A stretch of DNA of 64,000 nucleotides from a virus, in the UHGV virus genome UHGV-0057186. One strand, written 5' to 3'. Positions 1,952-6,169 of this stretch are shown one piece after another. The notes under the pieces are model-generated. The model made no database searches and was not told the origin of the DNA. It saw only the letters and a list, made by a program, of their open reading frames with translations. Both the position numbers and the translations under genes were made by a program. The first letter of the stretch is position 1; every line of letters starts with the position of its first letter.

Positions 1952-2065
1952 TTAATTGATTAACCAAGCATTGATAAGCACTAAACTATATTGCGAATAA
2001 AATTCTGGACCAAAATGAAAAATCATATCATTTATAGTATCCATAATGTAATTCAATTTAATCAT
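1952..2065 (-). CDS. hypothetical small protein (37 aa)
   Basis: ATG overlaps nrdG stop (translational coupling); short, weak. Confidence 0.3.
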   Translation of the reverse strand: MIKLNYIMDTINDMIFHFGPEFYSQYSLVLINAWLIN

Positions 2066-2528
2066 GTGTCCACACCCCATCGGTATTTGACCAAAGTCGC
2101 TGATTATCTGATCCTCGCCACAGCTTTTTGGTCGGAAGATTTTTCTCATACTTCCCATCAATAATAACATCAACATATTTAAGCATTTCTAGTTGTTTAA
2201 TATCTTCAAACTTATATCCTGTCCACAACCAAATGCTTTTATTGGGATAAAGATTTTTAATAGTTTGAACCACAGAGTGAATCACGTCTCTGTTATCAGG
2301 ATAGAGAGGGTCACCTCCGGTTATAGTCAATCCTTCTATATAATCATTATTCAAACATTCAATTAATTGTTCTAGTGTTTCACCAGTGAATGGAACACCA
2401 TTTCTAGCATTCCATGTTGATTTATTATAACACCCTTCACATTTATGCAAACAACCTGTAACGAAAAGAACGGTCCTGCAGCCAGGACCATTAACAAAAT
2501 CGCAAGGATAAAATCTATCATAATTCAT
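2058..2528 (-). CDS. nrdG: anaerobic ribonucleotide reductase activating protein (radical SAM)
   Basis: CxxxCxxC cluster (GCLHKCEGC) and second Cys cluster near N-terminus; 156 aa; directly downstream of nrdD. Confidence 0.92.
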   Translation of the reverse strand: MNYDRFYPCDFVNGPGCRTVLFVTGCLHKCEGCYNKSTWNARNGVPFTGETLEQLIECLNNDYIEGLTITGGDPLYPDNRDVIHSVVQTIKNLYPNKSIWLWTGYKFEDIKQLEMLKYVDVIIDGKYEKNLPTKKLWRGSDNQRLWSNTDGVWTHD

Positions 2529-4342
2529 TGGTGCTTAACCCTATGCATGATTTCTTTATTTTTGCCGAGATTAAATCCGCGTTCGTTCGGATTTCCCAAA
2601 TAACCACATGTTCTTCTTATTGTGTTCATCTTTTTAGGATCAGTTTCTCCACAAATAGAACAAACAAATCCGTTTTCAGTAGGAGTCATTTCATGGGTAC
2701 TTCCACATGTAAAACATTTATCTACTGGCATATTAACACCAAAATAATCTAAATGTTGTGCAGCATAATCCCAGACAGCCTCAAGACCTTTTAGGTTATT
2801 TTTCATATCAGGAAGTTCAACATAAGAAATGTGACCACCTGTCGCAATGAAATGATATGGGGCTTCGCGAGAAATCTTTTCAAACGGAGTAATATTTTCT
2901 TCTACTGAAACATGGAAACTGTTAGTGTACCATCCTTTATCGGTAACATCTTTTACACTTCCATATTTTTCGGTATCAAGTTTACAGAAGCGATAACAAA
3001 GGTTTTCAGCAGGAGTCGAATACAAACTAAAAGCAAACCCAGTTCTTTCAGTCCACTGTTTAAGACGAGCATTCATTTTAGTCAAAATTTCTTGTCCAAT
3101 ATCACGACCGACAAGAATATTCAATTCATGAATACCAATGTATCCTAGGGACACTGAACTTCTACCGTTTTTAAATAACTCAATTATGTCGTCATCAGGT
3201 TTAAGACGAACCCCGAATGCACCTTCTTGGTAAAGAATAGGAGCAACAGTCGCTTTAACTCCTTTTAAGGAATTGATTCTACACATCAAAGCTTCAAAAC
3301 ACAGATCCATTCGTTCATTGAATAATTCAACAAATTTCTGTTCATTGAATTGTGTTCCAATATAAGAATCTAACGCGATGCGAGGAAGATTCAGTGTTAC
3401 AACACCAAGATTATTACGTCCATCAAGAATTTCATTACCAGTCGAATCTTTCCATACGCTCAAGAAACTACGGCAACCCATTGGAGAAACAGGAATAGAT
3501 GAACCAGTGATAGCTTTATTGTTCTTAGCTGAAATAATATCAGGATACATTCTTTTGCTTGCACACTCTAGAGCAAGCTGCTTAATATCATAGTTCGGAT
3601 CGTCTTTATAAAGATTAACACCTTCTTCAACGAACATAACAAGCTTAGGGAAAATAGGAGTTATTCCATCACGACCAAGACCTTTAATGCGGTTTTTAAG
3701 AATTGCCTTCTGAATCATTCGTTCAGTCCAGTCAGTTCCCGTACCAAATGTAATTGTCACAAAAGGCGTTTGTCCGTTTGAACTAAAGAGAGTATTTACT
3801 TCATATTCATAAGCTTGGAATGCGTCATAGACATCTTTTTCTGTCTTAGATTGAGCATAATTCAACGCATCAGCGATTTGCCATTTTTCTGCATCTTCAA
3901 CATGTTTTGCATAGGTGCGTTTAACATAAGGAGAAAGAACTTTATCGACATTCGCAAATGTAGTTCCGCCATACTGATGTGAAGCAACCTGTGCAGTAAT
4001 TTGTGCCATAATTGCAGTAGCAACGCCAATTGATTTAGGAGTTTCAATCTGCGCATTACCAAGCTTAAATCCGTTCTCAAGCATTCCTTTTAAATCTACT
4101 AAACAGCAATTAGTAAAAGGCAATGATATACTGTAATCTAAATCATGAAAATGAATTAATCCAACATTATGGGCATTTACAATATGACTTGGAAGAATAC
4201 GACAAGCGATATGTTTAGAAACAATACCGGCCATTAAATCTCTTTTTGTTGGAAAGACGCGAGAATCTTTGTTGGCGTTTTCTGTATTTAATTCTTTATC
4301 TTTATTTGAAATAAAATTTAAAACATCTTTTTCTAAAGACAT
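2525..4342 (-). CDS. nrdD: anaerobic ribonucleoside-triphosphate reductase (class III), intron-less
   Basis: 605 aa; C-terminal glycyl-radical motif RTCGYLG; zinc ribbon CFTCGS...CSICGE; continuous ORF with no intron. Confidence 0.95.
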   Translation of the reverse strand: MSLEKDVLNFISNKDKELNTENANKDSRVFPTKRDLMAGIVSKHIACRILPSHIVNAHNVGLIHFHDLDYSISLPFTNCCLVDLKGMLENGFKLGNAQIETPKSIGVATAIMAQITAQVASHQYGGTTFANVDKVLSPYVKRTYAKHVEDAEKWQIADALNYAQSKTEKDVYDAFQAYEYEVNTLFSSNGQTPFVTITFGTGTDWTERMIQKAILKNRIKGLGRDGITPIFPKLVMFVEEGVNLYKDDPNYDIKQLALECASKRMYPDIISAKNNKAITGSSIPVSPMGCRSFLSVWKDSTGNEILDGRNNLGVVTLNLPRIALDSYIGTQFNEQKFVELFNERMDLCFEALMCRINSLKGVKATVAPILYQEGAFGVRLKPDDDIIELFKNGRSSVSLGYIGIHELNILVGRDIGQEILTKMNARLKQWTERTGFAFSLYSTPAENLCYRFCKLDTEKYGSVKDVTDKGWYTNSFHVSVEENITPFEKISREAPYHFIATGGHISYVELPDMKNNLKGLEAVWDYAAQHLDYFGVNMPVDKCFTCGSTHEMTPTENGFVCSICGETDPKKMNTIRRTCGYLGNPNERGFNLGKNKEIMHRVKHQ

Positions 4343-5154
4343 AATTCTAATTTATCCTTTTGAAATTCTTCGTCTAAATATGGGTTCCAACCCATTTTAA
4401 ACCTTTTGATGAAATTATCAATTCTAAATTTTGGTAAGTTTAAATCCGCAAAAATAGATGATTTACTTTTAAAATCTGGACTTAAATAATCATATAAAAT
4501 TTCTGCGTATTTTAACCATAATATACAAGTACCAGATTTAATTGCTCTCGGAGTTTTCCAAGGTTTTACACCATACATCGGATTTCCACTTCCTTTATGC
4601 CTGATAGAAGATGAAATTCCAATTTTAATTTTAGCTTCCTTTGTATGCGAAAATCCACGATGCGGATTTTCTTTCCAGTATTTTTTAGAAGCTTCTGATA
4701 TTTTCTTTCTGGCTAAATTAGTATGATGCTTTCCATAAAATCCATGATTTTTGCCTTTATTACGATTTCTTTTAATCATGGTTATTGATTGCTTTTCTCT
4801 AGTTTCTTTAGAAGGAGAAACACCGTACGTTGTAAATTGACCATCAGCATATGCTAAATTAAAATACTCTTTATTCCATACATCTTTTTCTATATTCTTT
4901 TGAAATTCAGCTTCAATGCTAGTTATTTGTTCATCTCCGACTAATTGAAAATATAATATTTCAACTTTCGGCGTTTCTTTCAACAGGGCTTTTTGAAATT
5001 CGGAAGATGACGAAGACGAATAATAAAATTTACCATTTTTATCAATAATATTCGTTCCGTCAAAAGTGCAATTAGTTTTACTTCCAATGTAATAATATGG
5101 CGGGGTTTTAGCATTAATTCTATTAATAAATGATAGTTTATATACTACATTCAT
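4333..5154 (-). CDS. free-standing GIY-YIG homing endonuclease-like protein
   Basis: N-terminal VVYKLSF...YYYIGSK (GIY...YIG pattern); two NUMOD3-like repeats (GKNHGFYGKHHT, KGSGNPMYGVKPW); overlaps nrdD start by 10 nt. Confidence 0.75.
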   Translation of the reverse strand: MNVVYKLSFINRINAKTPPYYYIGSKTNCTFDGTNIIDKNGKFYYSSSSSSEFQKALLKETPKVEILYFQLVGDEQITSIEAEFQKNIEKDVWNKEYFNLAYADGQFTTYGVSPSKETREKQSITMIKRNRNKGKNHGFYGKHHTNLARKKISEASKKYWKENPHRGFSHTKEAKIKIGISSSIRHKGSGNPMYGVKPWKTPRAIKSGTCILWLKYAEILYDYLSPDFKSKSSIFADLNLPKFRIDNFIKRFKMGWNPYLDEEFQKDKLELCL

Positions 5155-5624
5155 TTTAAACTCTTTCTAAGCTGCTTCTTGAATGAAGCTATTAATTGTG
5201 TTTTGGTGTCAGATTCATTATATTCAAATCCTCTTTGAAGCATCTCAGCCATCATTTCCTCTTTTCCTAAACGAGAAAATTCCTTTGATTTATCTCCAAC
5301 AAAGTTAGGGTGAATATTATTTTGGGTGTAATCGGATTTTAAATAAGTAAGTAAATTTTCTAACCATTCAAGATAATCAACACCTTGTCCCTTTAAGCCA
5401 GAACGATTAAATTTATGCTTCATTTGACCTTCTGCGGCATTACAGAGATTACAAAGCAATCCACGTACCTTTCCTGCTTTTGGTCCATTTAATTCATGGT
5501 CATGGTCGAGGTGATTAGCTTGAACATCAGGATTTAGTTCTCGTTGGCAAATTAAGCATTTACCGTTTTGTGCATCATAAAATTTCTGTTTTTCTTCTTT
5601 ATATAATTTGCCAGTCAATAACAT
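5151..5624 (-). CDS. 49: endonuclease VII (Holliday junction resolvase)
   Basis: 157 aa, matches T4 gp49 as I recall it (CLICQRELNPDVQANHLDHDHE...CNLCN zinc/HNH-like motif). Confidence 0.93.
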   Translation of the reverse strand: MLLTGKLYKEEKQKFYDAQNGKCLICQRELNPDVQANHLDHDHELNGPKAGKVRGLLCNLCNAAEGQMKHKFNRSGLKGQGVDYLEWLENLLTYLKSDYTQNNIHPNFVGDKSKEFSRLGKEEMMAEMLQRGFEYNESDTKTQLIASFKKQLRKSLK

Positions 5625-5665
5625 AATAAACCCTTACCTTAAATAGATAAGGGTATTTATTATTT

Positions 5666-6169
5666 TCAAGTATTGTAAAACATTTGATTCAATCGCTTAT
5701 ATTGCCGAATCTTTTGGTCAGAAAAAGAAATTTGAGTTTCAAGCCATTCAATGTACTCTGCGGCAGCTTGCATTAAATTTCCTTCATAGCCATCGTTATT
5801 TTCTTGTGCAGCTAATTTAGCTAATGCGTATGAAATACGTTCACCTTGAAAATCGGCTTTAGGCTTCTGAACAACTTGATTAGTTCGCTCTACAACTTCT
5901 TCAATTTCGCCATTTTCGACTGATTCAGTATTCCACAAGCACCAATACGTAATTGGCTTATCGTAGATGTTAATAATCTTTCCGCCGGAAAGTTCAATTT
6001 CAATAATTCCAGTATCAGGTTCTATATCATCTTCGCATTCTTTTGCAAGTTCACGAACTTTAAAGACAGTACCTGCACTAAGTTCCGGCCAGTAATTACA
6101 CAGCCCTGTATCAGCACGATTAATTCTAAACCACTTATCTACTGTAATCATGTCCCATCTCCATATCAA
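5666..6169 (-). CDS. hypothetical protein (position of pin in T4)
   Basis: ORF in track; synteny only; start may be the internal ATG (MITVDKW). Confidence 0.55.
   Translation of the reverse strand: MIWRWDMITVDKWFRINRADTGLCNYWPELSAGTVFKVRELAKECEDDIEPDTGIIEIELSGGKIINIYDKPITYWCLWNTESVENGEIEEVVERTNQVVQKPKADFQGERISYALAKLAAQENNDGYEGNLMQAAAEYIEWLETQISFSDQKIRQYKRLNQMFYNT

Follow-up and report, generated by a model that had tools for sequence, protein, structure and literature searches.

A probable SegG-type homing endonuclease gene between gene 49 and nrdD of a T-even phage, linked to a diverged nrdD 5′ end

Introduction

Free-standing endonuclease genes of the seg type, lying beside genes of nucleotide metabolism, are a classic theme of the T-even phages. 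The candidate described here is an open reading frame (ORF) of 273 codons between gene 49 and nrdD in the virus genome UHGV-0057186, analysed as a stretch of 64,000 nucleotides (nt) that is called the window below. Judged from sequence comparisons, the ORF belongs, with a probability of roughly 80%, to an intron-less homing cassette of the T4 SegG branch.

SegG, encoded by gene 32.1 of T4, is active as a free-standing GIY-YIG enzyme; its target is the adjacent gene 32, and it drives co-conversion (PMC2988022). It is the closest characterised relative of the 273-amino-acid (aa) protein, to which it is 40% identical over 128 N-terminal aa (BLASTP, E 3e-27). The same invariant residues and the same 16-residue motif spacing are found in both catalytic domains, and both genes appear as promoter-less inserts directly upstream of the presumed target gene. 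SegG is situated between genes 59 and 32, whereas the gene described here lies between gene 49 and nrdD and so has another presumed target. The protein described here is 63 aa longer than SegG and has two NUMOD3 repeats, of which Pfam finds none in SegG. The C-terminal regions of the two proteins are without BLASTP similarity, and endonuclease activity is reported for SegG and predicted for the new protein.

Other endonucleases are known from the same neighbourhood. The nrdD gene of T4 is split by a 1033-nt intron that carries I-TevII and is inserted at about nt 538 of nrdD. I-TevII and the present protein would share a target gene and a nuclease superfamily; I-TevII is intron-encoded and cuts near its insertion site, whereas the present gene, a free-standing one, has its place outside the coding sequence of nrdD, with nrdD nt 1-237 as its linked tract. 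The preliminary description of the locus had drawn this contrast with T4, and rightly so: nrdD of the window is one continuous ORF of 605 codons, and the counterpart of the T4 intron site, at about window position 3805, is without an intron. Around that site (window ~3770-3840, nrdD nt ~500-575) several silent differences from the T4 exon context are seen.

SegH of T6, U5 and RB10-type phages and MobC of T4 are likewise encoded by sporadic free-standing endonuclease genes of the T-even anaerobic ribonucleotide reductase operon (PMC2988022). These genes differ from the present one in being located at the other end of nrdD, at the nrdD/nrdG junction, which is occupied by mobC in T4 and by segH in T6 and RB10 (gene order nrdD-segH-nrdG in the T6 record AY262137) and is empty in the window. 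MobC is an HNH enzyme, and in the SegH-type protein of RB10 the DNA-binding signals are I-TevI-like and the GIY-YIG signals are of the SegE type, not of the SegG type. In the RB10 record (KM606999.1; positions 2877-4078 of the extracted region) the nrdD/nrdG endonuclease is annotated as ‘segD’ though it occupies the segH/mobC position, and it has NUMOD3 and I-TevI-type DNA-binding signals; nrdG of RB10 is annotated with 393 nt versus 471 nt elsewhere. Literature searches found no paper on the particular 49/nrdD gene described here.

Results

The gene is present in 50 phage records, several of them GenBank/RefSeq duplicates, at 95-100% nucleotide identity, and its site is invariably gene 49/nrdD. 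Forty-eight of the 50 copies are intact, and none of the carriers has an insert at nrdD/nrdG. The copy in the T4-like Escherichia phage vB_EcoM_PTE-Eco15 (PQ352352.2) is 100% identical to that of the window, which in essence represents this phage. GenBank labels the gene ‘homing endonuclease’ (e.g. in PQ352352.2), or ‘SegG’ in one record, JK42. The flanking genes occur at an identity of at least 90% in ~694 records, so that carriers make up ~7%. Several hundred records show a precise empty site, in which the stop of gene 49 and the ATG of nrdD share an ATGA; this junction was seen in REP1, T4, RB10, ES26 and FP43. Contrary to the case that the preliminary description had counted against mobility, an identical context in all relatives, the nrdD-49 interval is occupied at one site in a small fraction of them and empty in most. 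The endonuclease ATG is exactly the nrdD ATG(A) of the empty-site phages, and a new nrdD ribosome-binding site and ATG are supplied within the 3′ end of the endonuclease gene.

The same cassette occurs in two genera. AV111, ST0 and OLB35 belong to Mosigvirus; the window, ES26 and REP1 belong to Tequatrovirus. Between the window and AV111, identity reaches 98% in the endonuclease gene and ~95% in the nrdD tract linked to it, versus 76-81% in the adjacent part of gene 49 and 46-83% in the DNA further upstream. AV111 shares Mosigvirus single-nucleotide polymorphisms (SNPs) with the non-carrier FP43 until 24 nt from the endonuclease ATG, and again from about nt 258 of nrdD. These boundaries define the transferred unit as the 812-nt insert plus nrdD nt 1 to ~237, a unit of ~1.05 kilobases (kb) that is 95-98% identical between Tequatrovirus and Mosigvirus. 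The tract of ST0 is 100% identical to that of the window. Additionally, the flanks of the window are nearer to the non-carrier ES26 (97-100%) than to the carrier Pu-Krd-SF3. On sequence comparison, this combination of cross-genus identity and flank pattern is what would be expected from homing with co-conversion, and not from vertical descent.

Divergence from the non-carriers begins at the junction. Gene 49 is 98-99% identical to that of non-carrier phages right to the junction with the insert. Beyond the insert, identity to phages without the gene is 55% in nrdD nt 1-60, 77% in nt 61-135 and 60% in nt 136-237, and returns to 94-97% in the remainder of nrdD. The block at nt 136-237 is the most diverged and has a sharp end; in non-carriers the same block is 95-96% conserved across the two genera. 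Likewise, non-carrier alleles are 95-100% alike across the whole tract, even between genera. Codons 1-79 of nrdD differ from non-carriers by 28 amino-acid-changing and 25 silent changes, the other 526 codons by 3 and 50, respectively.

The diverged tract is strictly linked to the gene. At an identity of at least 95% it is found in 49 carrier records and OLB35 only; the other 928 nrdD matches stand at 60-80%. No phage record holds the tract at intermediate identity, the nearest other alleles being at ~75% or less. Such linkage would be expected for co-conversion together with target immunity. Two places matching the nrdD tract were seen in the Escherichia phage BEU50 (OM632671.1, 193 kb), which is ~25 kb longer than its relatives; this record may contain an assembly duplication.

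Decay and deletion of the gene are also apparent. In Pu-Krd-SF3 (PQ249397.1; positions 4471-5293 of the extracted region) there is a 1-nt insertion near codon 245, and the annotated coding sequence is 738 nt long. The insertion is shared by the sister phage Pu-Krd-SF4 and removes the last ~28 residues. OLB35 (MH992122.1; positions 4451-4700 of the extracted region) has no endonuclease gene and has kept the diverged tract, which is 98.6% identical to that of AV111. Its nrdD opens with the endonuclease ribosome-binding site and the first 22 nt of the endonuclease gene (ATGAATGTAGTATATAAACTAT), joined in register to nrdD nt 23. Its NrdD begins MNVVYKL, with endonuclease codons 1-7 fused to nrdD codon 8. 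The conserved GIY-like strand in the SegG family is MNVVY, so OLB35 has lost the endonuclease gene by an exact deletion of 812 nt. By its sequence, the OLB35 allele should resist cleavage though the gene is gone.

The ORF lies on the minus strand and starts MNVVYKLSFINRINAKTPPYYYIGSK (ORF list). Its ATG shares the ATGA at 5151-5154 with the TGA stop of gene 49, an overlap of 4 nt, and the nrdD start overlaps its last 10 nt (4333-4342), as had been described at the outset. A 273-codon ORF with significant homologues is far beyond chance in an AT-rich genome. The features of the locus are as follows.

4333..5154, minus strand: probable free-standing homing endonuclease gene, 273 aa, SegG family (ORF list; PHROG 7504 ‘homing endonuclease’, E 1.4e-34)
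4825..5154, minus strand: N-terminal catalytic domain, ~aa 1-110, divergent GIY-YIG (VVY at aa 3-5, YIG at aa 22-24, E81, N99)
4585..4803, minus strand: linker with two NUMOD3 DNA-binding repeats, ~aa 118-190 (Pfam NUMOD3, E 5.5e-8)
4336..4584, minus strand: C-terminal domain, ~aa 191-273, presumed sequence-specific DNA binding; also holds the nrdD ribosome-binding site and ATG
4106..4342, minus strand: diverged nrdD 5′ tract, nrdD nt 1-237, presumed co-converted, cleavage-immune allele (sequence comparison)
4106..4207, minus strand: nrdD nt 136-237, the stretch that corresponds to the predicted target
2525..4342, minus strand: nrdD, anaerobic ribonucleotide reductase large subunit, 605 aa (Pfam NRDD, E 3e-171; Gly_radical)
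5151..5624, minus strand: gene 49, recombination endonuclease VII, upstream neighbour (Pfam Endonuclease_7, E 5e-22; Endonuc-dimeris, E 1.5e-33)
2058..2528, minus strand: nrdG, activating subunit (Pfam Fer4_12; Radical_SAM)

Scans for sigma-70 promoters and terminators at the gene scored no better than shuffled sequence, and the late-promoter box of T4 (TATAAATA) is absent from the gene and its vicinity. From these results the gene looks promoter-less; it appears to be a translationally coupled insert in the gene 49-nrdD-nrdG operon. Several seg and mob genes of T4 have been described as inserts of this promoter-less, translationally coupled kind (PMC2988022). An RNA hairpin of -15.8 kcal/mol (z -2.75 versus shuffles) is predicted to cover the start codon of the endonuclease gene (window 5120-5215, minus strand). 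The prediction hints at a damping of translation of the kind reported for other endonuclease genes in T4.

The PHROGs match to the ‘homing endonuclease’ family covers aa 1-125, and tblastn matched the annotated segG genes of T4, RB7, RB55 and PST. In 19 SegG-like sequences the invariant residues are Y5, R12, P19, Y22, G24, S25, K26, Y44, S47, E81, N99 and A103, and the spacing from the GIY-like VVY to YIG is 16 residues versus the usual 10-11. T4 SegG, which is reported active, shows the same set of residues. AlphaFold, run with 26 sequences, gave a model that is reliable at aa 1-100 (predicted local distance difference test, pLDDT, 80-96) and poor in the C-terminal third. Strands at aa 2-8 and aa 21-26 of the model hold the GIY-like and YIG motifs, and the domain has the alpha/beta arrangement of the GIY-YIG fold. 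It differs from I-TevI (1LN0, 1MK0, 1I3J) in its low identity (~20%) and in having 6 additional residues, which include a short helix, between the motif strands.

Profile comparisons were made with a mixed alignment that includes canonical GIY-YIG proteins and with an alignment of SegG-like sequences only. Against the PDB, the mixed profile matched the I-TevI catalytic domain (E 1.6e-7), a score to which the canonical proteins in the alignment may contribute, and the SegG-like profile matched the I-TevI DNA-binding domain alone and no catalytic domain. Because the former match is ambiguous and the latter profile had no catalytic match, a separate profile-profile test was made. In hhalign, the SegG-like N-terminal domains alone matched a canonical GIY-YIG profile including I-TevI with an E-value of 1.1e-4 and a probability of 56%, with YIG placed on YVG, E81 on E75 and N99 on N90 of I-TevI. 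E81 and N99 also align with I-TevI E75 and N90 in an hmmsearch against 1LN0. The GIY-YIG-like N-terminus noted in the preliminary description is thus upheld by the invariant motifs, the kinship with SegG and the profile-profile match.

The two NUMOD3-like repeats noted at the same time correspond to a Pfam match (PF07460, E 5.5e-8, 33 bits versus a cut-off of 20.4) in two stretches, the best at aa 130-153. At this region the family profile also matched the I-TevI DNA-binding domain 1I3J (E 1.4e-4). The sole related Pfam/NCBIfam signal besides NUMOD3 is the sub-threshold TIGR01453 ‘group I intron endonuclease’ (E 1e-4, 22 bits versus a 56-bit cut-off). By tblastn, aa 149-264 are ~29% identical to homing endonucleases of the HNH type from Vi1-like phages, F-LimV among them, and the C-terminal domain is kept in two homologues, P0002 and P0004. 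The likeness of the C-terminal ~100 residues to HNH-type enzymes has the look of typical domain shuffling. Neither a zinc finger nor an I-TevI-type helix-turn-helix was detected in the domain search of the protein. A C-terminal kinship with T4 SegG had been suspected by eye from the motifs PWKT..RA and GW.P..D.E and was given up after BLASTP. From these sequence features we conclude that the protein is a putative GIY-YIG endonuclease of the SegG branch, in which a NUMOD3 linker is followed by a separate C-terminal module presumed to bind DNA.

Among the non-identical homologues P0002 is the nearest, with 58% protein identity; it is encoded on a 4.7-kb metagenomic contig, L011 (Logan SRR27536177). 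The order on this contig is gene 49, a 55-codon in-frame nrdD 5′ fragment, the endonuclease gene and a complete nrdD (region 2188-3180). The nrdD fragment is ended by the TGA of the endonuclease ATGA, and the complete nrdD starts inside the 3′ end of the endonuclease gene. The latter is frameshifted near codon 50, which could be an assembly error. Over its first 40 aa the complete NrdD of L011 is 66% identical to the window allele versus 50% to ES26; elsewhere the two comparisons are equal. The nrdD remnant breaks at nt ~165, inside the most diverged block at nt 136-237. The L011 endonuclease gene thus seems likewise to bring its own nrdD 5′ end, with the resident 5′ end left behind.

Scans of IMG/VR and of metagenome contigs for more distant relatives yielded three near-identical loci only. 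A paralogue of 273 aa, P0003, 56% identical in its N-terminal half, is encoded at 5001-5822 of another contig (L012; ENA contig NODE_202). This contig comes from another T4-like phage, in which the paralogue has the gene of the gp5 baseplate lysozyme on one side and a Y07E-like gene on the other, so that the catalytic module of the endonuclease is found there at a different locus.

Discussion

An intron-less homing arrangement with a free-standing endonuclease was put forward in the preliminary description, and it accords with the sporadic, site-specific presence of the gene, its transfer across genera, the linked tract and the decayed copies. The natural record, in which one sharply bounded cassette with its linked tract is shared by two genera, is consistent with preferential inheritance and co-conversion. 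The description can be refined in one respect: the mobile unit appears to be the ORF together with the first ~237 nt of nrdD, not the ORF alone.

In a mixed infection with a T-even phage without the gene, the enzyme would cut the 5′ part of the resident nrdD, likely in nt ~136-237. The break would be repaired by the phage recombination machinery from the gene-carrying genome, and repair would copy the endonuclease gene and the first ~237 nt of the donor nrdD. The donor allele is ~40% different there and would presumably be left uncut. A cut between nt ~136 and ~237 of the non-carrier nrdD is favoured by a small measure. This position is suggested by the most diverged block, by the L011 breakpoint and by analogy with free-standing phage endonucleases, which typically cut hundreds of base pairs (bp) from their own gene, with the interval being co-converted (PMC2988022).

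Several observations weigh against homing by a SegG-type enzyme. The Pfam GIY-YIG model (PF01541) does not match the protein; of the profile check that the preliminary description proposed, the NUMOD3 part therefore held in Pfam, and the GIY-YIG part failed in Pfam and succeeded in the profile-profile comparison. T4 SegG is likewise without any Pfam match, and since SegG itself goes unmatched the silence of Pfam reflects divergence of the SegG branch and is not counted against a GIY-YIG assignment. The profile-profile probability is just 56%, a Foldseek search of the model against the PDB returned nothing significant, and the model of the C-terminal domain is of low confidence. Arginine R27 of I-TevI has no aligned equivalent in the protein, and no conserved arginine at that position in the SegG-like family; the family-invariant R12 or K26 might replace it. 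Moreover, the donor lineage of the tract is absent from the phage collection, and L011 is a single short contig with a frameshifted endonuclease gene. Finally, SegH and Hef were reported by Sandegren et al. in 2005 to cut genomes both with and without their own genes, so a diverged tract need not mean immunity.

Three other explanations were considered. An active homing endonuclease might cut elsewhere (in gene 49, deeper in nrdD or at a distant locus), the tract being passenger DNA of the original donor. Cutting at hundreds to thousands of bp from the own gene is within the reach of free-standing endonucleases, and the cut position proposed here is itself a prediction. Such a separation of tract and target is nevertheless unlikely, as carriers and non-carriers do not differ at the 3′ end of gene 49, the tract has been kept in every carrier across two genera, even after deletion of the gene in OLB35, and the L011 remnant has its breakpoint inside the tract. 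Alternatively, the gene could be an old vertical resident that has often been lost and has by now become inactive or domesticated; the ancestral allele of the lineage would then be seen in the diverged nrdD 5′ end. An identical site in all carriers and the known decayed and deleted copies would suit such a history. It is made quite improbable by the 98% identity of the gene and ~95% of the tract between genera versus 76-81% just outside, and by the sharp tract boundaries in AV111, a window backbone nearer to the non-carrier ES26 than to other carriers, and the predominance of intact copies (48/50).

A protein that mainly benefits the phage, either as a weapon that excludes the markers of other T-even phages in a co-infection or by binding DNA to regulate nrdD expression, has some precedent: markers of T2 are excluded through the seg and mob enzymes of T4, and I-TevI also acts as an autorepressor (PMC2988022). 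The gene also provides the translation start of nrdD. A strong benefit is hard to reconcile with the loss and decay of the gene, and most relatives express nrdD without it, so that a primarily beneficial role is regarded as very improbable. Homing with co-conversion of the nrdD 5′ end is therefore preferred over these three explanations.

Within the T-even anaerobic ribonucleotide reductase operon, which is known for I-TevII, MobC and SegH, the gene would be an uncharacterised fourth occupant, with the 49/nrdD junction as a new site of insertion. No concept is changed by this, and the gene was already labelled ‘homing endonuclease’ in GenBank. Taken together, the public genomes give a near-complete natural history, with cross-genus invasion, a linked diverged tract, decay by frameshift and precise deletion. 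Phages of the genera Tequatrovirus and Mosigvirus are widely used in phage therapy collections. Intron-less homing and the exclusion of markers between these two genera could conveniently be studied at this locus, and the element explains a local nrdD mosaic that would otherwise confuse phylogenies.

The 55-codon remnant in L011 and the chimeric NrdD of OLB35 raise a further idea, which is put forward tentatively and is held with some doubt. A self-contained ‘target-replacement cassette’, provided with its own cleavage-resistant nrdD 5′ end, may be able to invade distant phage genera and leave chimeric NrdD N-termini behind. If such cassettes were general, breakpoints like that of L011 would predict the cleavage site from sequence alone, and conserved phage enzymes would regularly have their N-termini remodelled by such elements.

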